Positions 4,843 to 64,000 of a stretch of DNA of 64,000 nucleotides are shown here, piece after piece. A program made the position numbers and the translations under genes. This DNA is from an uncultured Acidobacteriota bacterium (GTDB taxonomy: Bacteria; Acidobacteriota; Thermoanaerobaculia; UBA5066; DATFVB01), in NCBI GenBank assembly GCA_963813155.1, contig CAWEYG010000003.1, positions 128,001-192,000 of the forward strand. The letters run 5' to 3'. Within the stretch, counting starts at the first letter, position 1. Every line of letters starts with the position of its first letter. The notes beneath the pieces were generated by a model. The model saw only the letters and a list, made by a program, of their open reading frames with translations, had not been told where the DNA came from and searched no databases.

Positions 4843-4887
4843 TACCTTTTTTCGCCTTTACCGGTTTTCAGGGCGAAAGGAGCCACG

Positions 4888-6069: not shown

Positions 6070-6135
6070 TTTTTCTCCCGCGTGGATCTTGACCTCCCGA
6101 AGGCGAGGGCCTAGCTTGTCGAGGGAGGTGCGGAC

Positions 6136-7147: not shown

Positions 7148-7169
7148 CGTCTCCCAAAACTCCAGATCG

Positions 7170-7535: not shown

Positions 7536-7565
7536 ACTGGGACCCTGGCTGGGAGGAGGTTCAAG

Positions 7566-8134: not shown

Positions 8135-8166
8135 CGCGCCGCTCCTTCGGATAAGATTCGGCCCGG

Positions 8167-13472: not shown

Positions 13473-13689
13473 ATGTCCCCTTTTCGCGGGTCGCGCGATG
13501 TGCAGGGGAGAGGGGTATGATTTTCGAACAAATGCCCATCGATGTCGCCCGCCTAACGCGGATCGTCTTAGGCCGACGATTCGGTTGCCAGGTTGTTGGC
13601 TCTTGGAGAGTGGGAGGCCGTTTTGTTCCGCCTATCGCGACAGACCCGCTTCCGCCTAATCACATGCTGGGCGTTTCAGCGAGCATTTC

Positions 13690-14061
13690 GTGAACGACGC
13701 CGTTCTCGAAATGTCCTTGGTACTCGTTGTGTCGGTCGCTGCCTACTTAGGTTGGGTCGCCTGTCGGTCAGAGCGTCCCGTCTGGACTGCTCGCAGTGTC
13801 GTCCTATCGTTGCTGACCGTAATCAATGTCCTGTGCGCGGCAGTGTCATTCCTGGGAATCTATGCTCTGGCGAACTTTGCAGCTGGCCTCAAAGCGTCGT
13901 GGTCAGATTGTCTCGTCGGTGGTAGCGTTCTGGCCGTCGTAGCTACCGTACTCGCCCTTCGAAGGCCGCGGCGTGACCTAATCGTGGCCCTAAACGGGGC
14001 GTTGATCGGGCTCTTCGGTCTAGCGTGGCTGATTCTGATCGCAACGTCGGTCCGCAGATGA
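13690..14061 (+). CDS. Cassette-like small membrane protein
   Basis: Four hydrophobic segments, lower GC, followed by an attC-like site. Confidence 0.7.
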   Translation: MNDAVLEMSLVLVVSVAAYLGWVACRSERPVWTARSVVLSLLTVINVLCAAVSFLGIYALANFAAGLKASWSDCLVGGSVLAVVATVLALRRPRRDLIVALNGALIGLFGLAWLILIATSVRR

Positions 14062-14080
14062 GCGAGCAGAGGGTCGAAAC

Positions 14081-14156
14081 GCCCAACATGTCGCGGCAGC
14101 GGACTTCAGCCCGCCGCGTTGCGCCGGGCTTCGCCGCTGAGCTCAAGGCGTTACCT
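14081..14156 (+). repeat. attC-like site
   Basis: GCCCAAC..GCAGCGGAC..hairpin..GCCGCTGAGC..GTTACCT. Confidence 0.8.
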
Positions 14157-14172
14157 GTGCGAGGAGCGTGAG

Positions 14173-14646
14173 TTGTTGCGGCAGAGTTGGAAGCTTCGTT
14201 GGTGGCCCCTACTCTGGTCGATCGCGATGGCCTTCTGTACGACGGTTCTCGGGGTAGGCCTCTGGATGGCAGCGTTGGGGCCCGTTGGCCGTGTTCACGG
14301 CGCGCTCATGTTCGTCACCCTACCATTCGTCACCCTTGGGTTTGCGGTAGGTGAGCTGCCGTCCAGGTCGGCCCTCGGGTCCGGAATCCTTCTAATCGGC
14401 GGGTTCGTTTTCTGGGCCGGCACTTCGTATGCCATTCTTCACTTGGCCAGCGGCCCGGTTAAGAGTGAAAGTGCGCACAGCCAACATCGGTATCTGGACT
14501 CCTCCTGCAAGAGGGCGAAGCGCGGGCTCGGGAAGAGGGTTCGACGGGTTGTGAAGAGCGCAGTTGGTGAGTCGAGGATGTCAGGTCGAGACAGCGATCG
14601 TATCTACGGCCTCTTTGTGGAGTCGCGTTGGCGCTCCGGGCCATGA
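14173..14646 (+). CDS. Cassette-like membrane protein (3' end now reads into the IS)
   Basis: GAGGAG RBS plus TTG just after attC; three hydrophobic segments ending before 14480. Confidence 0.55.
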   Translation: MLRQSWKLRWWPLLWSIAMAFCTTVLGVGLWMAALGPVGRVHGALMFVTLPFVTLGFAVGELPSRSALGSGILLIGGFVFWAGTSYAILHLASGPVKSESAHSQHRYLDSSCKRAKRGLGKRVRRVVKSAVGESRMSGRDSDRIYGLFVESRWRSGP

Positions 14647-14760
14647 TGGGAGCCGCACACGGGGAGCCAATCATTGACAGCGGCTTCTGAGAGCCACCGA
14701 TGTTGTCGGCTTGTCCCCGTGTCGGTCCGACCGAAACCATCATCGAGATCTGATGCGCGT
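14590..14760 (-). ncRNA. Predicted bridge/seek RNA of the IS1111 element (boundaries approximate)
   Basis: Two stem/internal-loop/hairpin modules whose loops match the target flanks and the IS ends. Confidence 0.75.
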
Positions 14761-14785
14761 TCACAGGAAGGTCGTGGTCCTTTCC

Positions 14786-15820
14786 TTAATTGCAGGGGCT
14801 CAGGCTTCGGGGTTCGTAGACAGTGTTTCGTGACCAGACGGCCCAGGCGACGCGAGCGAGCTTGTTGGCAAGGGCGGTGGCGGTGCGGTTGTGACCGCGG
14901 CGTTTCTCGACTTCGAGGGCCCAGGACTGGATGCGATCGGGGTTTTTGGAGCGTTTGGCGGCGAGAAGGACGGATCGCGCTCCGTGGATGAGAAGAGTTC
15001 GCAGGTAGGAGTCGCCGCGTTTGGTAATGGCGCCCAGATGGCGATTGTTACCGCTGGAGAACTCTTTGGGGACCAGGCCGAGGAAGCAAGAGAGCCGCCG
15101 GCTCGAGCGGAAGCGGGAGGCCGAGCCGACAAAACCGAGCAAGGCGGTGGAAGTCAGGAGCCCGATGCCGGGGATCGATTGAAGGCTTTTCGCTGCGTCA
15201 ATGTCCTTCGAGATCACCGCGAGCCGGCGATCCCCCATCCGAATGTTTTCCGTAAGCTTTCGGACCTCGTCGCAGAAGGCCAGAAGGATCGGATGAAGGT
15301 CTTTGGGTATGGCATCGGAGGCCAGCGCCTCGGAGACGGCGGGCAGGACGTATCGAGATCCCTGCGGGATGGTGACGCCGAGCTCGCGCAGGATGCCGCG
15401 CAGGATATTCAACCGAGCCGTGCGTGTGGTGATCCACGCGGAGCGCGAAGAGTGGAGAGCGGTCAGGACATGCTGGCCCACTGTTTTGACCGGCACGGGG
15501 AGGATCTGGTTGTTGCGCCCGGCTTCCAGCAAAGCATCGGCGTCGGCACGGTCGGTCTTGTTGCCGAGGCGATAACGGCGGACGTGGTGAGGAGGAAGAA
15601 GCACGACCTCATGGCCGAGGCCCTGGATCTCTCTTGCCCAGTGGTGTGCCGATCCGCAGGCTTCCATCAGAACCTTAGCCGAGGGTTGGTTAGAGAAGAA
15701 AGAGATCATCTGGCTTCTGGTCAGCCGGCGTCTCTGGCAGACGCGCCCCGGTTGCTTCGAGACGGCGATTTCGAAGACGGACTTCGCAAGATCAACGGCA
15801 ATGGTCGTAGAATCACTCAC
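14786..15820 (-). CDS. IS110-family recombinase/transposase
   Basis: DEDD RuvC-like residues (AVDLAK, MEAC, KTDRADA); IPGIG, GLVPKEFSSG, LIHGARS, ALANKLAR. Confidence 0.97.
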   Translation of the reverse strand: MSDSTTIAVDLAKSVFEIAVSKQPGRVCQRRRLTRSQMISFFSNQPSAKVLMEACGSAHHWAREIQGLGHEVVLLPPHHVRRYRLGNKTDRADADALLEAGRNNQILPVPVKTVGQHVLTALHSSRSAWITTRTARLNILRGILRELGVTIPQGSRYVLPAVSEALASDAIPKDLHPILLAFCDEVRKLTENIRMGDRRLAVISKDIDAAKSLQSIPGIGLLTSTALLGFVGSASRFRSSRRLSCFLGLVPKEFSSGNNRHLGAITKRGDSYLRTLLIHGARSVLLAAKRSKNPDRIQSWALEVEKRRGHNRTATALANKLARVAWAVWSRNTVYEPRSLSPCN

Positions 15821-15976
15821 GGACTTCTCCTTTCATGAAGCTGACCGATCAACCCGGAACAGCCTGGCACAACGATGCCGCACCATGCGGGGAGGAGTCC
15901 ATCTCATCATTGCAGCGGGCGGCGGGCCTGCGGATTGCCGTAGCTAAAGCCGGGTCGTCGAGCACCTGAGCAAGAG

Positions 15977-16714
15977 ATGTCAGTTCGTCAGTGGCTCTCT
16001 CGAATACCCCGAAGCGCACGGATTGGCGCGGGCGTGACATGTGCAATTGTTCTTCTGCCGCTTGGGGCATTTCTCATGTACGCGGGGTTGGCTATTGGCA
16101 ATGATTTGGCAGACAGGGGGCGATCAACGGGAATTCTCGGAATGCAGGAGCTCTGGCCGTTCCTCGGCCTCACACTCTATGCCCTCGTGATCGTCGCGAC
16201 GCCGGTGTCTGTCGGCGGCCTGATCGGCTGGGGGATCGATCGAGCGTTCAAGGCCGCGCGAGGCAGGGAGACGCGTAAGCAGAAACGTGGCCGGTGTCCG
16301 GTGTGCGCCCACGAATTTGACTATTACCTCGTGCATGACGGCTTCAGCGACACGGCACACGCATACTGCGATCGCTGTGGCGCGACGGCCCTTCTGGATA
16401 TGTGGTTCCCACGCATTCCACCCGCCGCGGATCTAAGGGTTCACCAAGCCATCTCAAAGGCGGTCGAGCCATGGCTGTCGCCGTGCCAGTGCGGAGGCAC
16501 CTTTCGCGCTGACGCCTCTCCTCGGTGTCCAACGTGTGGCGCACCGTTGGGGGCCGAAGAATGCAGAGGTTTTATCGAGCGCAATGCCGAAGGAACAAAG
16601 AAGGGGTGGCGGTGGCAGGGCAAATGGGTGGCAACCTACGCGATCGTCGTGGCGAACCGTGTCGTCTATGACAATTGGATTACCGAGAGCGTGGCACATG
16701 GCTCGAAGGCATAA
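15977..16714 (+). CDS. Cassette-like hypothetical protein: TM N-terminus plus Cys-rich (several CxxC) C-terminus
   Basis: TAA stop lies inside the R'' box of the next attC. Confidence 0.7.
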   Translation: MSVRQWLSRIPRSARIGAGVTCAIVLLPLGAFLMYAGLAIGNDLADRGRSTGILGMQELWPFLGLTLYALVIVATPVSVGGLIGWGIDRAFKAARGRETRKQKRGRCPVCAHEFDYYLVHDGFSDTAHAYCDRCGATALLDMWFPRIPPAADLRVHQAISKAVEPWLSPCQCGGTFRADASPRCPTCGAPLGAEECRGFIERNAEGTKKGWRWQGKWVATYAIVVANRVVYDNWITESVAHGSKA

Positions 16715-16769
16715 CACCGGCGTGCAGCGGGTTTCGCTACGCTCGCCGCTGATGCGCAAGTCGTTAGGC
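16709..16769 (+). repeat. attC-like site (61 bp, near-canonical)
   Basis: GCATAAC..GCAGCGG..GCCGCTGA..GTTAGGC. Confidence 0.88.
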
Positions 16770-16809
16770 AGTCAACGCAGGTCCAAACAGCTGAAAAGGA
16801 GTGCGCCCC

Positions 16810-17187
16810 ATGAAGCATAACGATCTCTTGAGTTTGACGTCGATACTCTCCGTGCTTCTGCTTGCCCTGCATATTTCGCAGGACATCGTCTTCGGGTTCG
16901 ACCGCGCAGGGCTCAATCATCTTGTCGGCGTTGCGATCTTGGTCGTCGTTGTCTGCGGCGCCGTGCTGCTCCGAGAACGGCGATTGGGCAAGGTGATCAT
17001 GCTGCTTGGCGGCGTGATGGCCGTCGGGATGCTGCCTCTGCACATGCGGAATGGATTGCGCCCGGAGTTTCTCGAGAAGAGCGGCGCCCTGCTGTTCATC
17101 TGGACGCTCTATGTCCTCGGAGTCATCGGCGCGTTCTCGATTATCCTGGCGATCCAGGCGTTGTTCGCTCGGCGGATCGCTTCGTGA
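16810..17187 (+). CDS. Cassette-like 4-TM membrane protein
   Basis: AAAGGAG RBS; hydrophobic ORF between two attC-like sites. Confidence 0.8.
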   Translation: MKHNDLLSLTSILSVLLLALHISQDIVFGFDRAGLNHLVGVAILVVVVCGAVLLRERRLGKVIMLLGGVMAVGMLPLHMRNGLRPEFLEKSGALLFIWTLYVLGVIGAFSIILAIQALFARRIAS

Positions 17188-17250
17188 AGAACCGCTTGCA
17201 GCGGACGTCGCGCCTGCGGCCTTGCCGCCCCTGAAGCCGGGCCGTTAGCC
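17184..17250 (+). repeat. attC-like site (degenerate R'')
   Basis: CTTGCAGCGGACGTCGCGCCTGCGGCCTTGCCG..CTGAAGCCGGGCCGTTAGCC. Confidence 0.78.
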
Positions 17251-17256
17251 CTCTTG

Positions 17257-17862
17257 ATGCATCGTCATCCAGCGTTTCGTTCTCGCCCTGCGCTCGCCCA
17301 GTTCGCCAAGAGTGGTTCATGGGAGACCGCTTTTTCCTTTGATCATCTGTGCGTCCCGACGCAGGCCGCATTGCTGGCGTTTCTCGATTCCACGGACGAA
17401 GTCGCCTTCGAGGTCTTCTTCGGTGATGCCTTCTTTGGCGTGCGCCTCGAAGGCCATGCAAGCCTCGTCGCTCAATTGTCGAGCGCCTGTGTCGAGGCAT
17501 TTTCCAGTTCACTCGATGGCACGACGTTCTTCGAGAGCCTTCAAGACGCTGGTGGCTGGAAAGGCCTTGGTCATACGATTTCATTCACAGAAATTGGCGC
17601 CGTAAACGCCTGGCGCTCCGTGGGCTCATTCCGCATGCCGCCGCCTGACCAGGCGCTACTCCATCTGCAGGAGCTATGGCCGCTCATATCCAGTACGCCA
17701 CTCGCCCACGACATCGACCACAAGAAAGCTCTCGAGTTCGCATATGAGCATCCCGTCAAGCATTGGTTTGCGCTGCCAGTCAGCCGATCCATTGCACCGC
17801 TCACCATTTCACACGCGATGCTCCGGCAGGCTCTTGAATCCGTCCTTCACCGAGAGGGCTAA
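17257..17862 (+). CDS. Cassette-like hypothetical protein
   Basis: Starts 7 bp after attC R'; stop lies in a half attC (GGCTAATCCTTCCTTCAAGCGGAC, 17857-17880). Confidence 0.7.
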   Translation: MHRHPAFRSRPALAQFAKSGSWETAFSFDHLCVPTQAALLAFLDSTDEVAFEVFFGDAFFGVRLEGHASLVAQLSSACVEAFSSSLDGTTFFESLQDAGGWKGLGHTISFTEIGAVNAWRSVGSFRMPPPDQALLHLQELWPLISSTPLAHDIDHKKALEFAYEHPVKHWFALPVSRSIAPLTISHAMLRQALESVLHREG

Positions 17863-17912
17863 TCCTTCCTTCAAGCGGACGTGCGCGCCGAGGCTATCGC
17901 CCCCGGCGGACG

Positions 17913-37731: not shown

Positions 37732-37758
37732 GCTCGGCGTCCGCGTCCGTTTTTTCTC

Positions 37759-37793
37759 AGAGCTCCCCGCGCTTCGGCGCGGGGGGCTCTTTG
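37759..37793 (+). terminator. Probable intrinsic terminator hairpin
   Basis: AGAGCTCCCCGCGC-TTCG-GCGCGGGGGGCTCT followed by TT. Confidence 0.6.
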
Positions 37794-37811
37794 TCGTGAG
37801 ACAATTCCCCC

Positions 37812-40245: not shown

Positions 40246-40249
40246 ATCC

Positions 40250-41906: not shown

Positions 41907-41921
41907 ACTTTGACCAGCAAA

Positions 41922-43265: not shown

Positions 43266-43269
43266 AGGG

Positions 43270-45153: not shown

Positions 45154-45187
45154 CGATTTCGCGCACGTGGAGTCTGTGGATCGTGCG

Positions 45188-45282
45188 GGCCATCACCGAT
45201 CCCGATCCGGCCGCCGCCAAGCGCGCGTTCGACGCGATGATGGAGATGACGAAGATCGACATCGCGGCAATCGAGGCAGCGC
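45188..45282 (+). repeat. 95-bp direct repeat, copy 1 (3' end of a VOC/PhnB-like gene)
   Basis: Encodes AITDPDPAAAKRAFDAMMEMTKIDIAAIEAA; one mismatch versus 49630-49724. Confidence 0.9.
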
Positions 45283-45861: not shown

Positions 45862-46355
45862 TCCCAGCGTCGCGGAAGGGTCCATCATTCGCCGCAGTAC
45901 TAGCCTTGCTGCTGAGTTGCTGCGTAGCCTTCGCCGGTGATGCCCAGATCAAATCCCCATCGGAGTGGCGGTCGGAACCGTCCTCGTACCGGGGAGTCGA
46001 GTGGTGCGCCACGGAACAGTCGGTCCGCAAGACCTTGCCGACAGAAGAATGCAATGCCATGTCGCAGGCCGAACCCGAACATCGGTTTTGCACCGTGGAA
46101 ATGCTGTTTCCAAAATCAATGGCGCGGGTGGCAGAGGTATATGAGTTCAAGAGCGATCATCTGGCGTCCGTCTCGGTCGAGTTCCGAAAGAAGTCATTTG
46201 CGAGCGCGGTGTCGCTCCTCGAGAAACAGTTCGGGCCGCCCAGCAGCGTCGCACCATCGGGCGACTTCCTCTGGCGTGGGGAGAAGGTCAGGCTGACCGC
46301 TCGACGTGATCGGCCGTCGCCGCTTGCGTGGTTCGAGGTTCTAAAGTGCCCTTAG
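45858..46355 (+). CDS. Exported hypothetical protein
   Basis: Signal peptide; LEKQFGPP motif; followed by a degenerate attC. Confidence 0.7.
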   Translation: MIPASRKGPSFAAVLALLLSCCVAFAGDAQIKSPSEWRSEPSSYRGVEWCATEQSVRKTLPTEECNAMSQAEPEHRFCTVEMLFPKSMARVAEVYEFKSDHLASVSVEFRKKSFASAVSLLEKQFGPPSSVAPSGDFLWRGEKVRLTARRDRPSPLAWFEVLKCP

Positions 46356-46368
46356 CTTCAGCGGGCCC

Positions 46369-46427
46369 GGCGAGCATGTCGTTGCAGCGGACCGCGGTTC
46401 TCGCCGCTGTAGCTGGGTCGGATGGGA
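46369..46427 (+). repeat. Degenerate attC-like site
   Basis: CATGTCGTTGCAGCGGAC..TCGCCGCTGTAGCTGGGTCG. Confidence 0.6.
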
Positions 46428-48750: not shown

Positions 48751-48922
48751 AACCACCTCCACGTAATCGTACCGCGGGTTGTTGCGCTTCCATGGGTTGC
48801 CAGAGAGGGGGCAAGGTCAGCTGTTGTCACGGGGTTGAGGCGTCTCAGACCCCACTTCCGTTCGCCTCCGGAGCTAACGCTGGTGGTTCCAGATTCCACC
48901 TCGTCCCGGTTGGGAAAACGGG

Positions 48923-49106
48923 GGGCATGGACAACTTGGGTCGAGACGAGACGGTCACCCGGAGCCGCCGGGGAGAGGGAGCTCTGGGGCAATCGGAACG
49001 ATTTCTTGGCTTGGTGTGGCTGTGGCTGTTTTTCCCGTCCACCGGAGGAAATTCGTGGCGCGGGCGAGCACGGGAGGCAAACACGAAAATAACGGCGGGG
49101 GATCGT
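48923..49106 (-). repeat. Conserved non-coding element, copy 1
   Basis: Inverted homolog of 53970-54164. Confidence 0.88.
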
Positions 49107-49155
49107 GATTGCCGGCCTTCACTCAAGAACCCCTTTGCCCGCTTGCGAGAAAGTT

Positions 49156-49178
49156 TGGAGCGGGCAATCGGGGTCGAA
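49156..49178 (-). repeat. 3' fragment of tRNA-Gly (att-like)
   Basis: Reverse complement TTCGACCCCGATTGCCCGCTCCA matches tRNA 53899-53921 at 22/23. Confidence 0.85.
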
Positions 49179-49237
49179 GCGGTGGTAAACTAACCCCAGT
49201 TTTCGTGTCGAAACGTTCGGGGAGAGGGGGGGCCGAG

Positions 49238-49629: not shown

Positions 49630-49735
49630 GGCCATCACCGATCCCGATCCGGCAGCCGCCAAGCGCGCGTTCGACGCGATGATGGAGATGACGAAGATCG
49701 ACATCGCGGCAATCGAGGCAGCGCGCCACGGCTGA
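49630..49735 (+). repeat. 95-bp direct repeat, copy 2 (49630-49724), running on to the VOC-like gene stop
   Basis: ..KIDIAAIEAARHG*. Confidence 0.9.
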
Positions 49736-49846
49736 GGAGCCTGTCCCTAATTCGGGGGTCCCGCGATGAGAAGTGGGGAGACGTGCGGCCTCGCCGCAGA
49801 AGTCGGGTCGGGGTGGAAAGGTATTGCTTCGTTGAAGGAGTGTTCA

Positions 49847-53756: not shown

Positions 53757-53846
53757 GGGCTCATCGTACTTCCGAAGGCGCGGGAATCGGGCGAGGGGCC
53801 GCCGTTGCCGACTGCCGACGACTCCGATAAAATCCGGCTTCGCTGA

Positions 53847-53921
53847 GCGGGCATAGTTCAGCGGTAGAACGTCAGCTTCCCAAGCTGAATGTCGTCGGTT
53901 CGATCCCGATTGCCCGCTCCA
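53847..53921 (+). tRNA. tRNA-Gly (CCC)
   Basis: GCGGGCA/TGCCCGC acceptor stem, TCAGC-TTCCCAA-GCTGA anticodon arm, GTTCGATCC T-arm, encoded CCA. Confidence 0.97.
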
Positions 53922-53958
53922 CTACTTCACCCAGGCGGGCACAGGAATCGTGAATAAC

Positions 53959-53990
53959 GGCGGGGGAGTACGATCCCCCGCCTTTCTTTT
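53959..53990 (+). terminator. Intrinsic terminator after the tRNA
   Basis: GGCGGGGGA-GTACGA-TCCCCCGCC-TTTCTTTT. Confidence 0.7.
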
Positions 53991-54164
53991 CGTCTTTGCC
54001 ACCCGTGCTCACCCTCGCCACGAATTTCCTCCGGTGGACGGGAAAAACAGCCACAAAAACAGCCACAGCCACACCAAGCCAAGAAATAGTTTCGATTGCC
54101 CACAGCTACCGTGCCCCAGCGGCTCTGGTGGCCGTGTCCGCCTCGAGCCAAGTTGTCCATGCCC
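53970..54164 (+). repeat. Conserved non-coding element, copy 2
   Basis: Contains AAAAACAGCCAC twice plus AGCCAC; homologous to 48923-49106. Confidence 0.88.
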
Positions 54165-54263
54165 GCCGCCCCCATCGTCCTGATCGTGAAGGTGGAAACT
54201 AGGCTTTTCCGAAGATTCGTGCGGTGAAGCAGGCGCTATTCAGCCCGATTTCGGGCGGTTCCC

Positions 54264-55934
54264 CTATCGGTGAAGGCGGAAATTCACGGTTACGGTCAAG
54301 TACACGGCGACCGGATTCCCGTTGAGCTCAGCTGGTCGGTAGGTCCACTGGGAAATCGCGTTCATCGCCGCGGCATCCAAAGCGAGTGCGGAGCTTTTGA
54401 TGATGTGCAAGTCTTTGACGCACCCCACCCTGCTGATGACCGCCTCAATGATCGTAATGCCCTCCAGATGCGCCTGCCGTGCGCCAATCGGATAATCCGG
54501 CTCGACCCGTCCGGAAATCGTCGGTGGTTTGATTCCTCCCCGTATCCTCACCGTTTCGCCCCTTGACGTGATTGGCCGCGATTCCTCGTCGCACGAAAAG
54601 AATCCGCTCTGCAACGAGGTTTCGATGGTCAACGGATCGTCGATCGTGGTCGGTTCGTTCGCTGGGGCAAGGGACAACAAATATAGGCTCTTGAATGCGT
54701 CGAAGCAGGCGACCTTGATCGGGTCACCGACGAGCATCGTGATCGTGGCCGGTCGCCCATCGGGCCGGTATCCGACCTTAGCAAGCCCTGCGACATCGCA
54801 GGAAGCCACTTTGCGGAGATCTATCCCCAGGCCATGCGGCAAGTCTTGCGCCATCCACATTTTCGGCTGGGTGAGAAACGCCGGTTCGGTGCTTGCGTGT
54901 GGCTTGGAAGGTTCTTTCATGTGCTCGAGGAGGCTTGATTGCAGCTCCGGCGGCGCATTCTTCACATTTCGCTCGTCGATCGCGGAACGCTCGCCTTCGG
55001 TCAGATACCGTCGAAGAGGGCTCAAGTCGAGGTCGCTGTCGAGGTGACAGTGTTCATTGGTGCGAAGGCAGGCGATCCAATCCTTGTTCTCGACGGCAGG
55101 CTGGCCGAGAACCCGGCGCAGTAGTTCCTGACCGAACGCCACTTCCGGGTCGGCCGAGGCATCGTGCGTGGAAGTCTCCGCGTTCTTGAGGATCGCGAGG
55201 AGCTGGCTCCCATCGGGGGGAGGTTGGTCGCAATACTCTCTCGCCAGATACCAGGCGGTCTCGCTGCGGAGGGCGGGAGCCTCGGAGCCGAGCGCGGTCC
55301 TCACCACGGGCGAAGATGCAAGCGCGGGGTCATGTCGAGCGTCGGACAGGATCGCCCTCCACGAAGTGAGATCGTTGCGACCAAGGGCCATCGAGGCGGC
55401 CCCGAGAAGGCTGTCCTGTCCTCGAGTGGCGATGCGGAAAAAGGCCGCGCGATCTCCATCCAGGAGGTGCAATTTGTCGAGCTTGTCGAAATACATCGGC
55501 AACGCCGCGAGCCCCCGCGCACGGGCAAGCGCGAGCACGAGGTCGGCGTCTATGGCGCCGCCGAATCGCGAAGCCGCCTCGAGAACGAAAGAATCCTTGT
55601 TTCCAGGCCCAACGAGGATGATCGCCCGGATCTCTTCACGGGCGGCGGTGACGGCTGTTTCTTTCGCGAGTGCGGATTCCACGTCTGGAATGAGAGCGGA
55701 AACACCGCACGTCGTAACGGCTCGCGCCGCAACGCCGCGCACGTCGGGATTGGAATCTGCAAGCGCCGCCCTCCAGCGAGCAACTACCTGGGGGTCCTTG
55801 GAGTAAGGAGCCAGGAGCGCGATCGAGGCTGGCGAAACGGGCTTCCTCAGCAGAGATGACAGCCCGTCGGCAAAGGCGACCGGGGCGAGGCTCAACGAGC
55901 AAAGGAATAGAGCTCCGAGAATGGATGGCGCCAA
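54264..55934 (-). CDS. TonB C-terminal domain protein with HEAT-like N-terminus
   Basis: VEPDYP..ARQAHLEG..AAMNAISQWTYRPA..GNPV; TTG start inside the attC R' box (the ORF track extends it to 56018). Confidence 0.85.
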   Translation of the reverse strand: MAPSILGALFLCSLSLAPVAFADGLSSLLRKPVSPASIALLAPYSKDPQVVARWRAALADSNPDVRGVAARAVTTCGVSALIPDVESALAKETAVTAAREEIRAIILVGPGNKDSFVLEAASRFGGAIDADLVLALARARGLAALPMYFDKLDKLHLLDGDRAAFFRIATRGQDSLLGAASMALGRNDLTSWRAILSDARHDPALASSPVVRTALGSEAPALRSETAWYLAREYCDQPPPDGSQLLAILKNAETSTHDASADPEVAFGQELLRRVLGQPAVENKDWIACLRTNEHCHLDSDLDLSPLRRYLTEGERSAIDERNVKNAPPELQSSLLEHMKEPSKPHASTEPAFLTQPKMWMAQDLPHGLGIDLRKVASCDVAGLAKVGYRPDGRPATITMLVGDPIKVACFDAFKSLYLLSLAPANEPTTIDDPLTIETSLQSGFFSCDEESRPITSRGETVRIRGGIKPPTISGRVEPDYPIGARQAHLEGITIIEAVISRVGCVKDLHIIKSSALALDAAAMNAISQWTYRPAELNGNPVAVYLTVTVNFRLHR

Positions 55935-55992
55935 CGACCCGGCTTCAGCGGCAAGGCCGCAGGCCGAAGTCCGCTGCAAGCCGATGATGGGT
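55929..55992 (-). repeat. attC-like site
   Basis: Minus strand ACCCATCATCGGCTTGCAGCGGACTTCGGCCTGCGGCCTTGCCGCTGAAGCCGGGTCGTTGGCG. Confidence 0.85.
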
Positions 55993-56002
55993 GCGAAGCT
56001 TG

Positions 56003-56371
56003 TCATAGGTGCTTCCACTCTTCGACGACTACTTGGAACGGGTCTTCATAAAGGACTTCCCCCGGGTTCTTTGACCGCAGAAGTCTCACGGGAACACCAT
56101 GATCTTTGAGGAGTGATGTGAGTTCCCAGAGCCTCCGGATCGGCTCTCCCGCTCCATCCTTGAGCCATGCCACCGCCTCTTTCGTCCAGCCGCTGCTCTT
56201 GAAAGGCGGGCAAGGAAGGTTTGCGTCGAGCCATTCGTATGTTTCTTCGAGACGATCGGCCTGATAACGGTCCAGCTCTCCACGGTCCCGAAGGAGGCGC
56301 GCCTCCGCGACGATGCCCGTGAGCCCCCAATGGTGCTCGTGGTCATGGCCGACTACAAACCGCACGAACAT
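56003..56371 (-). CDS. Cassette hypothetical protein
   Basis: ORF fills the space between two attC-like sites; PGEVLYEDPFQVV. Confidence 0.8.
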   Translation of the reverse strand: MFVRFVVGHDHEHHWGLTGIVAEARLLRDRGELDRYQADRLEETYEWLDANLPCPPFKSSGWTKEAVAWLKDGAGEPIRRLWELTSLLKDHGVPVRLLRSKNPGEVLYEDPFQVVVEEWKHL

Positions 56372-56377
56372 CTTTGA

Positions 56378-56437
56378 GCACCGGACGCGGCGTCAGCGGT
56401 GGCGCGAAGCGACATCCGCTGGACGCCAGTGTCGAGC
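56378..56437 (-). repeat. Degenerate attC-like site
   Basis: GGCGTCAGCGGTGGCGC..GACATCCGCTGGACGCC palindrome. Confidence 0.7.
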
Positions 56438-56440
56438 GAC

Positions 56441-56812
56441 TCAGCCCGATGGTGCTGCAAGATATATCCTCACAGTTCGGCCGTTAGCGAATGTTATGGT
56501 GAAGCCATTCTCGATCTCGCACGAGCATTCCGTAGCGTATCGCCACTCGTTCGTCCCGGTACCATTTTCTGGCGGACCGAGATTCTCAAGAACTTCCATC
56601 CTGGTGGACCCGAGGTGGAGAGCGCCCCAGTTGCCGAACCCTTCGCGCGGGTTGAAGTAGGCCCTAATAGCCTTTTTCTGCTCCCTTGGCGAAAGCTCTG
56701 GATCTACGCCGGTAGAAAGGGTGAGATCCCCAACGACGTTGTCCGTGTAGCACTTTGCGTGAAGCTTAGAGGCCCGTTGCCAGCCGATGTTAACCGTTCT
56801 CACGGTTGACAC
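56441..56812 (-). CDS. Cassette hypothetical protein (BamE/SmpA-like motif)
   Basis: LGSTRMEVLENLGPP..WRY. Confidence 0.6.
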   Translation of the reverse strand: MSTVRTVNIGWQRASKLHAKCYTDNVVGDLTLSTGVDPELSPREQKKAIRAYFNPREGFGNWGALHLGSTRMEVLENLGPPENGTGTNEWRYATECSCEIENGFTITFANGRTVRIYLAAPSG

Positions 56813-57200
56813 CTTTCGAAAGCAACGAGAAGGTTATGGCGGCAAAGACTCCAGCCAGCAGAGCTCGGCCGGCCGCCTCGCCGACCTTTCCCGGCCAAGG
56901 TGCACCGCTGTAGTGAACGTCAGTCAGAAAGAACACTCCGGTTATTACCGCCAAGCCGATGACCCATGCGAGACGAGGCGGACGGCGGATCAGGAACGCG
57001 ATGCCGCCCCCCGTGATTGAACCGGCAACAATCCACTGCAGGGCGAATAAAGTTGGAAACGCCCAGGGCTCGCGGCGCACCAGACTGCTCCCCAGAGCGA
57101 CGCTGACAACCCCGACGGCGAGACCTGATAGCCAGAATGCGACGTAAGCGATTCCAACGACCGCGGCAGCATCGGCAATATTCTGGCGATCGTCAATCAT
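56790..57200 (-). CDS. Cassette membrane protein
   Basis: Four TM segments; ATG 9 bp after attC R'. Confidence 0.75.
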   Translation of the reverse strand: MIDDRQNIADAAAVVGIAYVAFWLSGLAVGVVSVALGSSLVRREPWAFPTLFALQWIVAGSITGGGIAFLIRRPPRLAWVIGLAVITGVFFLTDVHYSGAPWPGKVGEAAGRALLAGVFAAITFSLLSKGVNRENG

Positions 57201-57208
57201 TTTGAGCC

Positions 57209-57273
57209 ACCCAACGCCCCGCCCCCAGCGGCAAGGCTGCAGGCCGAAGTCCGCTGCACGCCGATGGTCGGGT
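57209..57273 (-). repeat. attC-like site
   Basis: Minus strand ACCCGAC..GCAGCGGACTTCGGCCTGC..GTTGGGT with complementary ends. Confidence 0.85.
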
Positions 57274-57281
57274 GGCGTGGG

Positions 57282-57536
57282 TTAGCTTTCGTCATCGCGC
57301 GCCTTGAGGTCTCTGATGCCACCCTTGACATTCCACACCCATACCGCAAGGAGAATGGGGATACCGATGGCTAGGAAGAGTCCCCCTGTCACATTGGCTC
57401 CCGTGCGGAGGGCTTTCACCACGCCCGAGAGTACTAAGAGCCAGACTCCGGAAAATACGAGGAAGAAGAAAACCGAACCTATCACCCGCGCCCTCGCCAA
57501 TCGTCGCCGAGTGTGGACCGGCCAACCCTTGATCAT
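57282..57536 (-). CDS. Cassette small 2-TM protein
   Basis: Hydrophobic ORF between attC-like sites. Confidence 0.7.
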   Translation of the reverse strand: MIKGWPVHTRRRLARARVIGSVFFFLVFSGVWLLVLSGVVKALRTGANVTGGLFLAIGIPILLAVWVWNVKGGIRDLKARDDES

Positions 57537-57874
57537 GCGCTCACCGCTGCCCGACACCCGAACGACCCGGCTTCAGCGGCAAGGCCGCGGGGCGCCTGCC
57601 ATGCCGAGGCCTCAACCCCAAAGTCGGCCCGAGCCTGTTCAAGCGCATCCTCGAGCGAAGAATGCCACGAGTCGTTCATGGAGGTTCCATCTTCTCTTGA
57701 CCACTCCAAGATGAAACCGCCGTCTTCCTGAAGAATCCTCAGGTTCAGGCGGTCTACCTGAGATGGAGTGGCTGGAGGGGCCGCTGCATTAGGCGGTAGC
57801 CAACCATGAGCCTGCGCGCCGCCAGAGCGAACCACGCAGCCGAGAGCTTCCTTGATGAGAATGCTGTTACCCAC
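57533..57874 (-). CDS. Cassette hypothetical protein reading through a half attC (57557-57589)
   Basis: DSWHSSLEDALEQARADFGV; the GLAAEAGS tail is attC-encoded. Confidence 0.7.
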   Translation of the reverse strand: MGNSILIKEALGCVVRSGGAQAHGWLPPNAAAPPATPSQVDRLNLRILQEDGGFILEWSREDGTSMNDSWHSSLEDALEQARADFGVEASAWQAPRGLAAEAGSFGCRAAVSA

Positions 57875-57878
57875 GGCC

Positions 57879-57945
57879 CTCTAACGCCCCGGCTTCAGCG
57901 GCGGCCGGCCGCAGGCGCGACATCCGCTGCACGCCGATGTTAGAA
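57879..57945 (-). repeat. attC-like site (near-canonical)
   Basis: Minus strand TTCTAAC (contains the RDD stop) ... GTTAGAG. Confidence 0.9.
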
Positions 57946-58491
57946 AGCATTGGTTCCAAGCGGTTTCTCGACGACCACAACCGTACCCGCAATGAAGTCA
58001 TGCAGGGCGCGTTTCTTCCGGTTGCTGACCAAGACGATCGCTTCGGCGAGTACCCAGGCGAAGATGCTCCACCTGAAAAAATATAACGAATGTGGCTCTA
58101 ACTGCCGGAACTGCTTCGACCGTTCTCGCCAACTCAGCGCTGCAAAGGTGACGGCCGGCATTCGGGAATACGCCACGAGGCTCCGAAGGAACGACGCTAT
58201 CGATGGAAACACATCAACGCATAGGCGAATGCTCGCCTGAGTCCAGGTCGCTCGCGTTCCGTCAAGGGCAAGAACCTTGATACCCGCGACCGACTTGCCA
58301 ATCGTCTTTCCCCACCGTCCGACGAAATAGATCGGATAAGCCAACGCTGCGACCTCGAACACGATCAGCGCCGAGATGGTGGCTTCTTTCGAATGGGAGT
58401 ACGCAACGAAGAACACCACGTAGAGCGGAACGAACACAACGAAGTCGATGAGGTGGGCTGCGACCCGGCGCCAGAACCCGGCGTAGATCAT
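57940..58491 (-). CDS. RDD family protein
   Basis: YAGFWRRVAAHLID, GKTIGK, KKRALHDFIAGTVVV. Confidence 0.93.
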   Translation of the reverse strand: MIYAGFWRRVAAHLIDFVVFVPLYVVFFVAYSHSKEATISALIVFEVAALAYPIYFVGRWGKTIGKSVAGIKVLALDGTRATWTQASIRLCVDVFPSIASFLRSLVAYSRMPAVTFAALSWRERSKQFRQLEPHSLYFFRWSIFAWVLAEAIVLVSNRKKRALHDFIAGTVVVVEKPLGTNAF

Positions 58492-58514
58492 CGTCGCTCA
58501 CCCCGTTTGATGCT

Positions 58515-58576
58515 TCCGAACGACCCGGCTTCAGCGGCAAGGCCGCAGGCCGAAGTCCGCTGCAAACCGGGTCGCC
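58515..58576 (-). repeat. attC-like site
   Basis: About 45 bp identical to 55933-55979. Confidence 0.85.
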
Positions 58577-59269
58577 TCACGGCTTGGTTTTCTTCACGCA
58601 TAGGGTGTCCGCCTCAATCGGAGCGCACGGCCGAAGATCTGAATAGCAGCCCTCGGGCGCACGAAAGAAACAATCGATCACTCTCAGGTTGCTTGACGCT
58701 GGGCTTCTTTCGTTCGGATGCTGAAGCGCATAGACCTCGCCACTGGCCATGGCAACGGCAGTGAAAACCGTGTTGCCGTACCACTTCTCGTCTTCGGTCT
58801 TCTCGAATGAAGCGACCACTTTCATCTCGGCGGTCACCGCTCTCAAAGCCGCAGACGCATCGGCCGGCACAAGCGGAACGGCCTGGAGCGCGGAGTGTGC
58901 AGTTCTCACGAACTCATCGAGTCGCCTGAACTGCTGATGGTCGATCCGGTTCCTCACTCCCGTCCCGCCAGACGTGGCCGTATGGGTTGACGCGCATCCG
59001 GTGGCGAGAAAAGCCACAAAGATCGCACCGACCGTAAGAGGATGCGACATCCGCCGCACGCCGGTGTTAGCCCGCACGCCTTCCAGCTCCCTGCACTCCT
59101 GGACGATGAGGATAGCGACCGCTACCGCCAAGACCCACCAGACCGGATGAGGAAGGTCGAGGCGAGTCGCCGCCAAGAACATGGCGCAAGGTGCCGCGAT
59201 CAACAAGACAATTCTCAAGAACAGCTTTCCGGAACGCGATGTCTCGACGGGTTGCGACGATGCCATCAC
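58577..59269 (-). CDS. Apparent fusion of a 2-TM cassette ORF and a lipoprotein ORF (second start at 59050)
   Basis: Internal lipobox LATGC; half attC at 59045-59072. Confidence 0.65.
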   Translation of the reverse strand: MMASSQPVETSRSGKLFLRIVLLIAAPCAMFLAATRLDLPHPVWWVLAVAVAILIVQECRELEGVRANTGVRRMSHPLTVGAIFVAFLATGCASTHTATSGGTGVRNRIDHQQFRRLDEFVRTAHSALQAVPLVPADASAALRAVTAEMKVVASFEKTEDEKWYGNTVFTAVAMASGEVYALQHPNERSPASSNLRVIDCFFRAPEGCYSDLRPCAPIEADTLCVKKTKP

Positions 59270-59288
59270 ACCCTCCTCAACTTTTGCC

Positions 59289-59352
59289 GCCTAACGACCC
59301 GGCGTCAGCGGCGGCGAACCGCCGGAACGACGTTTGCTGCGAGATGCTAACC
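59289..59352 (-). repeat. First att-like site of the minus-strand array (perfect GTTAGGC, degenerate left arm)
   Basis: GCCTAACGACCCGGCGTCAGCGGC on the plus strand. Confidence 0.7.
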
Positions 59353-59441
59353 CGCTTACCGCCTGGCGGGAACCGTGTCGGCAGCCACAGGAAAAAGGTG
59401 CGGAGGTATCGATCTCATAGCTCGCCCCTTACAAGAACCGG

Positions 59442-59493
59442 CGTCAGCTTCCCAAGCTGAATGTCGTCGGTTCGATCCCGATTGCCCGCTCCA
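59442..59493 (+). repeat. attR-like duplication of the tRNA-Gly 3' 52 bp
   Basis: Identical to 53870-53921. Confidence 0.95.
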
Positions 59494-59510
59494 ATTTTTT
59501 CTCACCGGTG

Positions 59511-59622
59511 CCCCCTCACCCGGTCCTCGCTCGCCGCGCTCGCGAGTCCCACCCTCTCCCTCGAGGGCAGCCTTCGAATCGCTTGGTGAACGCGGGAGGG
59601 CAAGCGCAGCGCGGGAGAGGGG
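59511..59622. repeat. REP-like element of the CCCTCTCCC..GGGAGAGGG type
   Basis: CCCCTCACCC..CCCTCTCCC..GGGAGAGGGG. Confidence 0.55.
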
Positions 59623-59669
59623 GAACCTGGGTTGTCATTTCCGGCCCGGGGAACTAAACTCGGGATTCC

Positions 59670-60158
59670 ATGGCTTTGTTCGGGAACAAGGAAAAAGAAA
59701 GATCGTTGCCGCCGAGCCCTCCGCCCGCAGCCGCGCCCAGCGCGGGGCCGGCGAAGGCGGCGAGCAAGGCCTCGGGAGGATCTACCGTGATCGGAAGCCA
59801 GATCAAGCTGACGGGCGAAATTTCGGGCGATGAAGACGTCGAGATCCAGGGACGAGTCGAGGGGACCATCAGCCTCAAGAAGAACCTCGTCATCGCGACC
59901 GGGGGCTCGGTGGACGCGAAGATCCACGCGAAGAACGTCACGATCTCCGGAAAGGTCAAGGGCGATGTGACCGCCGACGAGCGGGTCGAGCTGCTCGCAT
60001 CGGGCTCGCTGGAAGGAAACGTTCGCGCGCCGAAGATCGTCATCTCGGAGGGCGCGCACTTCCGGGGCAGCGTCGACATGTCGGCCTCCCGGCCCGAAGC
60101 CGCGAAGATGAGCGAGCCGCCGAAGCCGCCCGTTCCCGGGCCGCTGCCCGGCCACTGA
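59670..60158 (+). CDS. Bactofilin (polymer-forming cytoskeletal protein)
   Basis: [40 protein letters not shown]. Confidence 0.92.
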
Positions 60159-61642
60159 TGGTATCCGCCGAAAATCAAAACTGGATCGGGGGCCGCCGGG
60201 TCGCCTCCGCTTCCGGGAAGACCTTCGAGAATCGCAACCCGGCCGACCGCGACGACCTGATCGGGGTCTACCAGAAGTCGAACGCGAAAGACGTGGATGC
60301 CGCCGTCGCTGCCGCGAAGAAGGCCTACCGCGACTGGCGCCTGACCCCCGCTCCGAAACGCGCCGAGTACCTCTACGCCGCGGGCGACGTGCTCAAGCGG
60401 CGCAAGGAAGAGATCAGCCGGATCATGACCCGCGAGATGGGCAAGGTGCTCGCGGAGACGCGGGGCGACGTGCAGGAAGCGATCGACATGGCCTTTCTCG
60501 CCGCCGGCGAGGGGCGGCGCCTGTTCGGCGTGACCGCTCCGTCCGAGCTGAAGAACAAGTGGGCGATGGCGACGCGCGAGCCCGTCGGCGTGTGCGGGTT
60601 CATCACGCCGTGGAACTTTCCGATCGCGATTCCCGCCTGGAAATCGATGGCGGCGCTCATCTGCGGCAACACCGTCGTCATCAAGCCCGCCACGGACACC
60701 CCCGCCTCCGTCCTCGAGCTCGCGAAGGTGTTCGAGGAGGCTGGCCTGCCCGAAGGGGTTTTCAACGTCGTCACGGGAACGGGATCTGAAGTCGGGGACC
60801 CGCTCGTTCACCACCCGGACGTCCGGGTCGTCTCCTTCACCGGCTCGACGTCGGTCGGAAAGGCGATCGGCGTGGAGTGCGCGAAGCAGAATAAGCGCTT
60901 CCACCTGGAGATGGGCGGCAAGAACGCGATCCTGATCCTCGACGACGCGGACGTGGACCTCGCGGTCGACGGCGCGCTGTGGGGGGCGTTCGGCACGACG
61001 GGCCAGCGCTGCACGGCGTCGTCCCGGCTTCTCGTTCACAAGGACGTCCTCAAGTCTTTCGAAGAGAAGTTCGTCGCCCGCGCGAAGGCCCTGCGCGTCG
61101 GAAACGGATTGGCGGAGGGGATTGACATGGGCCCCTGCGTGTCCGAATCGCAGCGAGAAACGGTTGCGCGCTACGTCGAGATCGGGAAGGGCGAGGGCAA
61201 GCTGCTCGCCGGCGGAAAGAAGCTGACCGACGGCGCCTGGTCGAAGGGCTGGTTCCACGAACCGACGGTCTTCGAGGCCAAGCGCGACGCGCGGATCTCC
61301 TGCGAGGAGATCTTCGGCCCGGTGACGACGATCATCCCGATCGGTTCTCTCGAGGAAGGGATCGACGTCGCGAACGGCGTGGCCTACGGCCTGTCGGGCT
61401 CGATCTACACGCAGGACGTCAACAAGGCGTTCACGGCGATTCGCGATTTCGAAACGGGGCTCTTCTACGTGAACGCCGCGACGATCGGCGCGGAAGTCCA
61501 CCTGCCGTTCGGCGGGATGAAAGACACGGGCAACGGCCACCGCGAGGCCGGCATCGCGGGGATCGACGTCTTCACGGAATGGAAATCGATCTACGTCGAC
61601 TTTTCGGGAAAACTCCAGCGAGCGCAGATCGACAACAACTAG
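60158..61642 (+). CDS. Aldehyde dehydrogenase family protein
   Basis: ITPWNFP, FTGST, LEMGGKN, GQRCTA, EEIFGP. Confidence 0.96.
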
Positions 61643-61653
61643 GAGAGCGCCCC

Positions 61654-62766
61654 ATGATCGTCGGCCTTCCGAAGGAGATCAAGAACAACGAAAACCGTGT
61701 CGGCCTCGTGCCGGCCGGAGTCGCCGCGCTCACGAAGGCGGGGCACGAGGTGCTCGTCGAGAAGGGCGCGGGAGTCGGATCGGGAATCGAGGACGAGGAA
61801 TACCTTCACGCCGGCGGCAAAATCGTCCCCTCGGCCGACGACGTTTTTTCCCGGGCGGACATGATCGTCAAGGTGAAGGAGCCGATCGAGCCCGAATACG
61901 CGCGCATGCGGCCGGGCCAGATTCTCTACACCTATCTGCATCTCGCGCCCGCGGGCAAGCTCACCGACGTTCTCCTCGAGCGGCAGGTCACCGGCGTCGC
62001 GTACGAGACGATCACGGGGCGAAACGGGAGCCTGCCTCTCCTCACTCCGATGTCGGAGGTCGCCGGGCGGATGTCGGTTCACGTCGGCGCGTACTACCTG
62101 CAGAAATCCAACGGCGGGCGCGGCGTTCTTCTCTCCGGAGTTCCGGGAGTTCCGCCGGCCGACGTCGTCATTCTCGGGGGAGGCGTCGTCGGCACGAACG
62201 CCGCGAAGATCGCGGCCGGCATGGGCGCCGACGTCACGATTCTCGAAATGTCCCCCGACCGCATGCGCGAGCTCGACGACATCTTCATGGGCCGCGTCAA
62301 GACCGTCGCTTCGAATCCCGTCACGCTCGAAGAGGGCTGCCGCCGGGCGGATCTCCTGATCGGGGCCGTGCTGATTCCGGGCGCGGCGGCTCCGAAACTG
62401 GTGACGCGCGACCTCATCGCGAAGATGAAGAAGGGCTCTGTCGCCGTCGACGTCGCGGTCGACCAGGGCGGCTGTTTCGAGACGACGCACGCGACGACGC
62501 ATTCGGATCCCGTGTACACGGTCGACGGGGTGATCCACTACTGCGTCGCGAACATGCCGGGCGCCGTCGCGCGAACCTCGACGTTCGCGCTTACGAACTC
62601 GACGCTTCGCTACGCGCTGGAGCTCGCGAGCAAAGGCTTCGCGAAGGCCGTCAAGGAAAACGCGCATCTCGCGGCGGGCGTCAACACGTACAAGGGAAAG
62701 CTCACGTACGAAGCGGTCGCGATCGCCCAGAACAAGCCGTTCGTCCCGCTCGAAAAACTTCTGTAA
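61654..62766 (+). CDS. ald: Alanine dehydrogenase
   Basis: [47 protein letters not shown]. Confidence 0.97.
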
Positions 62767-62787
62767 ATCCGGATTGCGAGCCGGTCG

Positions 62788-63759
62788 TCAGCCGGAGACC
62801 CGCGCCACGAGCGCCGTCAGGTCCTCCGGCCAGGGCGCTTCGACGGTCACGAGCTTCTGCGTCGCCGGGTGATGGAACGTGATTTTCTCGGCGTGGAGCG
62901 CCTGCCGGGGAAACGCGAGCAGAGCCTTTTTCAACTCGGCGTCCTTGATCTGGGGATAACGCGGCCTTCCATAGACCGGGTCGCCGACGACGGGGCAGCC
63001 GATCGACGCCAGATGGACCCGGATCTGGTGCGTGCGGCCGGTGATCAGCTGCAGCCGCAGGAGCGAGAGGTCGAGGGCCGGCCACTCCTTCTCGATCGCG
63101 TACATCGTGCGCGCCTCGCGGATCGACGGGGGAGCGGCAGTCTTGAACCCCTTCATCTTCTTGCGGTCTTTCGGGTCGCGCCCGATCGCGAGCGCGATCT
63201 CGCCCTTCCGCAGCTTCGGCCTTCCGGCTGCGAGAGCGACGTATTCCTTCCGAACCGACCTCTTCTTCATCTGGCGGGAGAGCGACTCGTGCGCGCGATC
63301 GGTCTTCGCGACGATCAGGACGCCGGACGTGTCGCGGTCCAGGCGATGGACGATGCCGGGCCGCTCTTCTCCGGAGATTCCCGGGAGGGCCCTCCCGCAG
63401 TGGTGGAGGATCGCGTTGACGAGCGTGCCCGACGCGTGCCCGGGAGCCGGGTGGACGACGAGGCCGGGAGGCTTGTTGAGGACGAGCAGGTCCGCGTCCT
63501 CGAGGAGGACGTCGAGCGGAATGTCCTCCCCGAGGTGCTGCGTCTTCGCCGGCTCGTCCGGAAGGCGGACCTCGATCGTCTGGCCCTCCTCCGTCGTGCG
63601 GGAGTTGCGGCGCTCGACGCCGGCGTCGATGGAAACGGCGCCCTCTTCGATCAGCTTCTGGATCCGGGAGCGCGAAAGGTCGCCGCACGCGGCGGCGAGG
63701 AATTTGTCGAGTCGTCTTCGCGCGGAGGCCGGGCCAACGGAAAATCGCCGGCTGGCCAT
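62788..63759 (-). CDS. rluD: RluA/RluD family pseudouridine synthase
   Basis: S4 domain RLDKFL; NKPPGLVVHP, RPGIVHRLDRDTSG, TGRTHQIRVH. Confidence 0.95.
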   Translation of the reverse strand: MASRRFSVGPASARRRLDKFLAAACGDLSRSRIQKLIEEGAVSIDAGVERRNSRTTEEGQTIEVRLPDEPAKTQHLGEDIPLDVLLEDADLLVLNKPPGLVVHPAPGHASGTLVNAILHHCGRALPGISGEERPGIVHRLDRDTSGVLIVAKTDRAHESLSRQMKKRSVRKEYVALAAGRPKLRKGEIALAIGRDPKDRKKMKGFKTAAPPSIREARTMYAIEKEWPALDLSLLRLQLITGRTHQIRVHLASIGCPVVGDPVYGRPRYPQIKDAELKKALLAFPRQALHAEKITFHHPATQKLVTVEAPWPEDLTALVARVSG

Positions 63760-63763
63760 TCTT

Positions 63764-64000
63764 CTACGCGGGTTGGGGGCGACGGGCGGCCCTTCGCGAG
63801 AGGACCCAGAGCATCACGGCGGAAAGGATCGCGAGGAGAGCGCCGATGAACTGGGCGGTCGAGAGGACCCCCGGGATGACGAAGCCCCGAACGAGGTCGC
63901 CGCGAAACTCCTCGATCACGCCGCGCGTGATCGCGTAGCCCAGAACGTAGATCCAGAAGACCTGGCCGTGGAATTTCTTGTGGCGATACACGTACTCGCA
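63764..64000 (-). CDS. lgt: Prolipoprotein diacylglyceryl transferase, C-terminal part (truncated at window edge)
   Basis: KKFHGQVF..Y...R..IEEFRGD..STAQ; upstream of rluD. Confidence 0.8.
   Translation of the reverse strand, partial: CEYVYRHKKFHGQVFWIYVLGYAITRGVIEEFRGDLVRGFVIPGVLSTAQFIGALLAILSAVMLWVLSRRAARRPQPA

Follow-up and report, generated by a model that had tools for sequence, protein, structure and literature searches.

The window analysed here, 64,000 nucleotides (positions 128,001 to 192,000) of contig CAWEYG010000003.1 in the assembly GCA_963813155.1 of an uncultured Acidobacteriota bacterium, contains a tRNA-Gly(CCC) gene (53847-53921, plus strand; ARAGORN and Rfam) whose last 52 nt, 53870-53921, are repeated directly at 59442-59493 with 52/52 nt identical. 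The 5,520 bp enclosed by these two cores, here called the islet, have a G+C content of 0.605, compared with 0.66-0.68 in the core regions, and carry eight co-oriented minus-strand open reading frames (ORFs) together with repeats that prove to be attC sites. A sequence-only reading of this DNA had described a tRNA island of 5.6 kb, bounded by a perfect duplication and free of any recombinase gene, that consisted almost entirely of an attC cassette array. All but the last of these points, including the count of eight ORFs, are borne out below.

Three features support a tRNA island: the exact duplication of the core, arm-like repeats at both ends, and related tRNA alleles without the islet. The repeat is the 8-mer CAGCCACA, which has six matches in the 64 kb, all in island ends: the left flank has three, the right flank has one, and an inverted sister end at 48919-49181 has the other two. 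Shuffled sequences predict 0.46 matches, and none of 100 shuffles reaches six. In ICEMlSymR7A, an integrative and conjugative element (ICE), short repeats split between attL and attR form the arm-site layout of the integrase (PMC11963761). Since the CAGCCACA repeats are likewise divided between the two flanks, they are probably integrase arm-type sites. The left arm and the sister end are 79% identical over 276 columns, with an identical block of 31 bp, and the sister end has neither a right end nor a full core. Searches with the left arm against phages and plasmids gave 1 and 5 short, chance-level matches, respectively, none with more than 13% coverage. A short left-end peptide that resembles the tail of a tyrosine integrase has no PHROG match and no phage match, and was rejected as unshown. 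No longer protein was found for a 48-aa frame over the arm repeats, in what is a weak test, and an attC-like reading of 54095-54160, made by eye, receives no score from the family models.

The related alleles come from one GTDB scan with a 50-nt pattern of the tRNA, which returned three loci (L001-L003) in two Acidobacteriota metagenome-assembled genomes (MAGs) and one Thermoanaerobaculia MAG, none of the same species. In all three the tRNA is present as a single copy with no match to the islet interior, so that the comparison for empty sites proposed in the sequence-only reading came out in favour of an island; the L003 contig ends ~500 bp past the tRNA. The attC family model, used here as a sequence profile only, finds nothing better than E 0.11 at these loci. 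In L003 (9487-9991) an ORF that looks like one for a PHP/TrlF-type ATPase starts after the tRNA just before the contig end and possibly belongs to an unrelated island at that tRNA. In L002, a 2.5-kb tandem duplication (3850-6324 and 6996-9469, 99% identical) lies downstream of the tRNA-Gly.

The islet has no detectable recombinase. Six-frame translation of 53800-59560 yields 88 stop-to-stop frames of 45 aa or more, none of which matches an integrase, recombinase or transposase family in Pfam, where an RDD protein and a HEAT/TonB_C protein are the sole names above or near the cut-off. Searches by tblastn with one serine and two tyrosine recombinases, IntI1 being one of the latter, give a best E of 0.25 over the 64 kb (for IntI1, nothing better than 2.1), a stretch that includes 4.5 kb to the right of the islet. 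Together with NCBIfam searches of nine islet queries, these results leave the islet without integration or transfer genes. The search for intI and for tRNA-Gly-type integrases, which had been suggested for the genome, covered the 64-kb window, and within it no intI lies near the array. A complete integron would have intI and attI beside its array; here no attI was recognised by eye in the islet, and what precedes the first cassette is a half attC joined to the island arm. A consensus scan finds no minus-strand promoter, and PADLOC matched 0/14 proteins.

The repeats of the islet are attC sites as a family, an identification that follows from two independent tests, a class 1 reference model and the insertion point of an IS1111-attC-type element in a sister array. 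The reference covariance model was built from 14 class 1 attC sites in class 1 integron regions of named plasmids, extracted by box rules and by eye; catB11, arr-3 and IMP-6 were left out as misaligned or long, and the oxa-1 and dfrA27 sites were added. Its top five hits in the window (56380, 14081, 16709, 57879 and 46379) all belong to the family and lie on the strand predicted to be the bottom one. Among the full-length islet sites (numbered as in Table 1), s2 scores 24.1 bits and s6 15.5, the others 7.6, 5.0 and 4.4, and two of the five thus exceed the maximum of 13.1 bits found in 66 kb of control DNA. These two sites, with the insertion in the sister site, supply the at least two attC sites of an attC cluster that has no integrase (CALIN), as the sequence-only reading had supposed. 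Pairing over eight window sites amounts to 89% in the central stem and 61% in the R helix. On the bottom strand, the extrahelical base of the L-box stem precedes the GTT position by 9 nt and is C, or G in s2. Covariation within the family is not significant (54/500 shuffles), and blastn of the sites against plasmids gave 14 short matches, none covering 80%. In the islet sites the R'-L' spacer exceeds that of the examined class 1 sites by 1 nt. In most copies of the family, AAC and the inner stem are separated on the bottom strand by 10 nt instead of 9, and the usual extrahelical base is C, not G.

The sister array (13500-17880), itself decayed, lies on the opposite strand to that of the islet, and its sites at 14081 and 16709 retain both R boxes. 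Another of its sites, at ~14.5-15.9 kb, is interrupted by an IS110-family element (14786-15820) in which a frame of 344 aa is open. Among plasmid sequences, the best relatives of this element are ISPa25, ISPa21 and ISKpn4 (46.8-47.9% identity). The element is inserted between L'' and the unpaired spacer, within 1 nt of the insertion point of attC-inserted insertion sequences in L005, L007 and L013; ISPa21 in L006 is outside any integron array. ISKpn4 and ISPa25 target attC sites, and the window element is like this IS1111-attC group (ISKpn4, ISPa25, ISPst6; PMC11187229) in its closest relatives and in its insertion point. It differs in lying outside the islet and in sharing less than 50% identity with the named elements. 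Degenerate attC remnants with their top strand on the plus strand also adjoin low-G+C accessory genes at 46343-46427 and 49744-49816, the latter weak (~15 bits, within background).

The islet array is decayed. It comprises five full-length sites (55929, 56377, 57209, 57879 and 58515) and four half sites (56774, 57557, 59044 and 59289), a count that replaces the six or more sites and two half sites first reported. Thus four of the nine sites are halves, four of the five full sites lack an R box, and folding is weak. AAC and GTT both stand at their box positions in s6 only, whereas s1, s4 and s7 keep R' and not R'' and s2 has neither; an R'' AAC paired with an R' GTT on the bottom strand, as in a functional attC, is therefore found in 1/5 full and 0/4 half sites. 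The z-scores for bottom-strand folding are -2.0 (s1), -2.4 (s2), -0.4 (s4), -0.5 (s6) and -3.7 (s7), against -5.2, -6.2 and -5.9 for three class 1 control sites, and the bottom-strand energy is below that of the top strand in two of the five full sites. Where the sequence-only reading had staked attC identity on covariance models and bottom-strand folding, the family thus ranks top in the model, with 2/5 sites above the control, and folds weakly. Nowhere in the array do two neighbouring sites both retain their R boxes. One would therefore not expect canonical attC x attC excision, and the cassettes would for the most part no longer be substrates for IntI. All four half-site breaks seem to fall in the variable loop near the L''-side stem, with one arm kept whole; this could reflect hairpin-driven deletion, or only the places where similarity is still visible.

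Nor does the array fill the islet. It makes up 3,364 of the 5,520 bp (61%), and a gene for a HEAT-repeat/TonB protein without an attC of its own takes up 1,671 bp (30%), so that 'almost entirely' was an overstatement. Read from the sequence, the eight ORFs appear to represent nine gene units, since the frame at 58577-59269 runs across a half site and joins two genes. Of the ORFs at half sites, one apparently has no start, one reads through and two are fused in frame. For the 122-aa protein, 3 of 11 plasmid homologues were examined and have no attC above background nearby, so its status as a cassette elsewhere is unsupported; a search with a homologue led to unnamed clusters only.

The TonB/HEAT protein belongs to a large family of ~550-aa proteins, and the family model finds no attC after its gene, at 54095-54260. 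Most close homologues have a start that lies a few residues further upstream, followed by a basic n-region; the islet frame starts at a TTG in the R' of s1. The gene, probably not part of a cassette, seems to have been clipped at the junction. The same junction could be read as the product of a different history, in which the islet was already integrase-less, with its TonB/HEAT cargo, and the cassettes came later and piecemeal at secondary (attG-type) sites through an IntI from elsewhere. GWT sites receive cassettes through IntI, which may give rise to small CALINs (10.1101/2022.09.11.507474), and s1 has an intact GTT followed directly by the TonB-like gene, which lacks both the basic n-region and its own attC. 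The islet's attC family is also present without island ends, at 13.5-17.9 kb and near 46.4 kb. However, it is a half attC and not the missing TonB start that lies upstream of the first cassette, so extra deletions would be needed; the 64 kb contain no intI; and the TTG could be the true start of the gene. A late arrival of the cassettes is conceivable but seems unlikely.

Table 1. Features of the islet and related features in the window; 'apparently' marks readings made from the sequence.
Coordinates	Strand	Feature	Remarks
13500..17880	+	Second array of the islet's attC family	No tRNA, no integrase; IS110-family (IS1111-attC type) element inside an attC
48919..49181	-	Inverted sister left end	Short piece of tRNA-Gly 3' end; two CAGCCACA in arm; no integrase behind
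53824..59628	.	Block probably inverted relative to relatives	Breaks up, at its ends, the divergent tRNA/bactofilin promoter region of L001
53847..53921	+	tRNA-Gly(CCC), putative integration target	attL core is its final 52 nt (53870-53921)
53922..54168	+	Left island arm	Terminator-like hairpin 53959-53982; three CAGCCACA (54048, 54060, 54066)
54264..55934	-	HEAT-repeat/TonB C-terminal protein, 556 aa	Frame starts at TTG within R' of s1; not followed by an attC
55929..55995	-	attC s1	R' intact, R'' altered; bottom strand is plus
56003..56371	-	Intact 122-aa hypothetical protein	193 relatives across taxa, many equal in length
56377..56440	-	attC s2	Best stem (24.1 bits); both R boxes altered
56441..56812	-	ORF behind half site s3	Apparently without start
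56774..56796	-	Half attC s3 (R''-L'' only)	Stop codon of upstream ORF in R''
56790..57200	-	136-aa hydrophobic ORF	No family match at the thresholds applied
57209..57275	-	attC s4	L' and R'' altered
57282..57557	-	91-aa hydrophobic ORF	
57533..57874	-	113-aa ORF	Natural end apparently deleted; no homologue found
57557..57592	-	Half attC s5 (L'-R' only)	Upstream ORF reads through
57879..57945	-	attC s6	Sole islet site with both R boxes; RDD stop codon in R''
57940..58491	-	RDD-family membrane protein	PF06271, E 5e-21
58515..58581	-	attC s7	R' intact, R'' lost
58577..59269	-	230-aa frame	Apparently an in-frame fusion across s8 of two genes, one for a short membrane protein (from 59266), the other lipoprotein-like (from 59050)
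59044..59070	-	Half attC s8 (R''-L'' only)	
59289..59375	-	Half attC s9 (L'-R' only)	Joined directly to right island arm
59376..59441	+	Right island arm	One CAGCCACA (59382)
59442..59493	+	attR core	Exact duplicate of the tRNA's terminal 52 nt

The islet is most likely a new combination of two known relic types, and is unlikely to be an active element. With a probability of about 0.6, it is a remnant resembling a cis-mobilizable element (CIME) with a decaying CALIN inside, situated in a tRNA hot spot and derived from a tyrosine-integrase island that has lost its integrase and body. Such an island would have integrated at the 3' end of tRNA-Gly(CCC), leaving the 52-bp core that is observed at both ends and, presumably, arm sites on both flanks. 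Deletions may then have removed the integrase and most of the body; the left arm now borders on the TonB-like gene, and the right arm meets an attC in its middle. If a cognate integrase were provided in trans, for example by a related island inserted in tandem, it could still excise the islet, which may be one piece of a tandem-accretion hot spot that includes the sister end at 48919-49181. The block of tRNA and islet would have been inverted later.

Some observations sit less easily with a CIME-like remnant. No integrase-bearing parent was found: the three GTDB loci lack this arm, the phage and plasmid searches gave only the short chance-level matches, no parental ICE or integrative and mobilizable element (IME) appeared in any of these sets, nor was a remnant of one detected, and an integrase remnant at the left junction could not be shown. 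The assembly carries indel errors, and the single-base damage to R boxes could partly be error, although read error is an unlikely cause of the larger deletions at the half sites. Finally, the ends are better preserved than the array, with a perfect core and intact arm repeats on both sides, which suggests recent integration or selection rather than a long decay of the ends.

Well-kept ends, with a perfect core and arm-like repeats on both sides, would also be expected of the other possibility raised in the sequence-only reading, a dedicated and still mobile non-autonomous cassette carrier that consists of att cores, arms and cargo and obtains both an island integrase and IntI in trans. A second left end that likewise has no integrase behind it, and that shares the 31-bp block, fits such a carrier, as does the attC remnant near 46.4 kb, which has the same relative orientation. 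However, the array is mostly non-recombinable and without a recognised attI or minus-strand promoter. The sister copy is incomplete, arrays of the same attC family also occur without a tRNA end, and neither a second complete member (GTDB scan, phages, plasmids) nor a helper nor an excised circle was seen. The half sites, lost R boxes, weak folding, cut genes and tRNA-less second array fit a reduced relic better, and a carrier, for all that speaks in its favour, is improbable. The same holds for a whole Acidobacteriota family of minimal hitchers that would consist of nothing but tRNA-Gly att cores and CAGCCACA arms and would ferry cassette arrays from genome to genome, excised by an island integrase and loaded by an IntI, each in trans, with the islet and the sister end as two of its members.

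The surroundings of the islet point to further rearrangement. L001 is 84-89% identical to both flanks, with ~2 kb between them there and ~14.5 kb in the window, and this homology breaks at 53824 and 59629, inside a shared promoter region. The tRNA is directed away from the bactofilin gene in L001 and L003 and towards it in the window, L002 being uninformative, so the block of tRNA and islet looks inverted relative to both informative relatives (2/2). Reversing 53824-59628 would bring the tRNA, both tRNA fragments, both left arms and the attC remnants into one orientation, like a tandem island array. Such an inversion is also what could be cited for regarding the duplication as no integration scar at all, but as a by-product of local rearrangement or, in a contig prone to errors, of misassembly. 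The two copies of a 95-bp gene end, at 45188 and 49630, and the many frameshift-type gaps in the alignments with L001 also speak for this view. Against this, the copy is the 3' part of a tRNA, is in direct orientation and is flanked on both sides by a repeat unique to these ends, and the islet contents are unique sequence of lower G+C. Such an origin is very improbable indeed.

Several details of this region may be added. In L001 (9900-9980) the promoter regions of the tRNA and the bactofilin gene overlap divergently, and the window has them split (53805-53833 and 59632-59660), with a different -35-like hexamer at 17-nt spacing for its tRNA. Between attR and the putative inversion breakpoint is a 135-bp palindromic stretch (59494-59628) resembling repetitive extragenic palindromic (REP) sequences, with weak matches in L001 and L002. 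The many non-triplet gaps on both sides of the alignment with L001 (window 37753-45164 and 59629-64000) fit long-read indel errors in one or both assemblies. The 95-bp direct repeat (45188-45282 and 49630-49724) is the 3' end of a gene, presumably VOC/PhnB-like, which L001 has at ~11436-11922, frameshifted there, and the remainder of which is absent from the window. Between the two copies lie 4.4 kb, with the sister island end among them; the pair possibly marks a second target of insertion.

Each component of the islet has precedents. CIMEs, as defined together with their tandem accretion in PMC5704250, keep attL and attR at the 3' end of a gene without integrase or transfer genes, as the islet does, and the islet likewise lies beside the remains of a related element at the same tRNA. 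It differs in its cargo, a cassette array, and in its Acidobacteriota-related host; a CIME derives from an ICE or IME, the parent here may have been an ICE, an IME, a prophage or a satellite, and mobilisation is putative. With CALINs, that is, integrase-less cassette arrays (PMC4889954), it shares co-oriented attC sites, cassette-sized ORFs without known function and the lack of a nearby intI, and its size is typical (the published average is ~5 sites). What sets it apart is enclosure by tRNA-island att ends and the loss, at most sites, of an R box or a whole half. Islands that target tRNA-Gly are likewise established, and ICEclc (PMC5812530) restores and duplicates the 3' end of the tRNA as the islet does, but its duplication is 18 bp rather than 52 bp, and the islet, of 5.6 kb, lacks genes for an integrase or for conjugation.

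CALINs are common and often occur at several loci per genome, and about half of Xanthomonas genomes carry them away from the integron locus (PMC12444791). They have already been counted, with MITEs (miniature inverted-repeat transposable elements), among the helper-dependent 'hitcher' genetic elements (PMC11389934), and the islet would similarly need helpers for excision and for cassette shuffling. No helper or transfer route is seen for it, however, and a CALIN in an integrase-less tRNA island is not described in the available part of that source. The literature searched, which included few subscription papers and is thus weak evidence on this point, yielded no CALIN enclosed in such an island, and no dedicated study of integrons in this lineage was found in it.

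As a relic, the islet is a tidy example of how a CALIN can end up away from intI, here inside an island with retained ends, and with two arrays and an attC-targeting insertion sequence within 64 kb it records integron activity in this lineage. If a family of minimal hitchers did exist, it would be a site-specific vehicle for CALINs. Were the ends still excisable, and the family widespread without an integrase, elements of this kind would provide a missing route for the horizontal spread of integrase-less cassette arrays.

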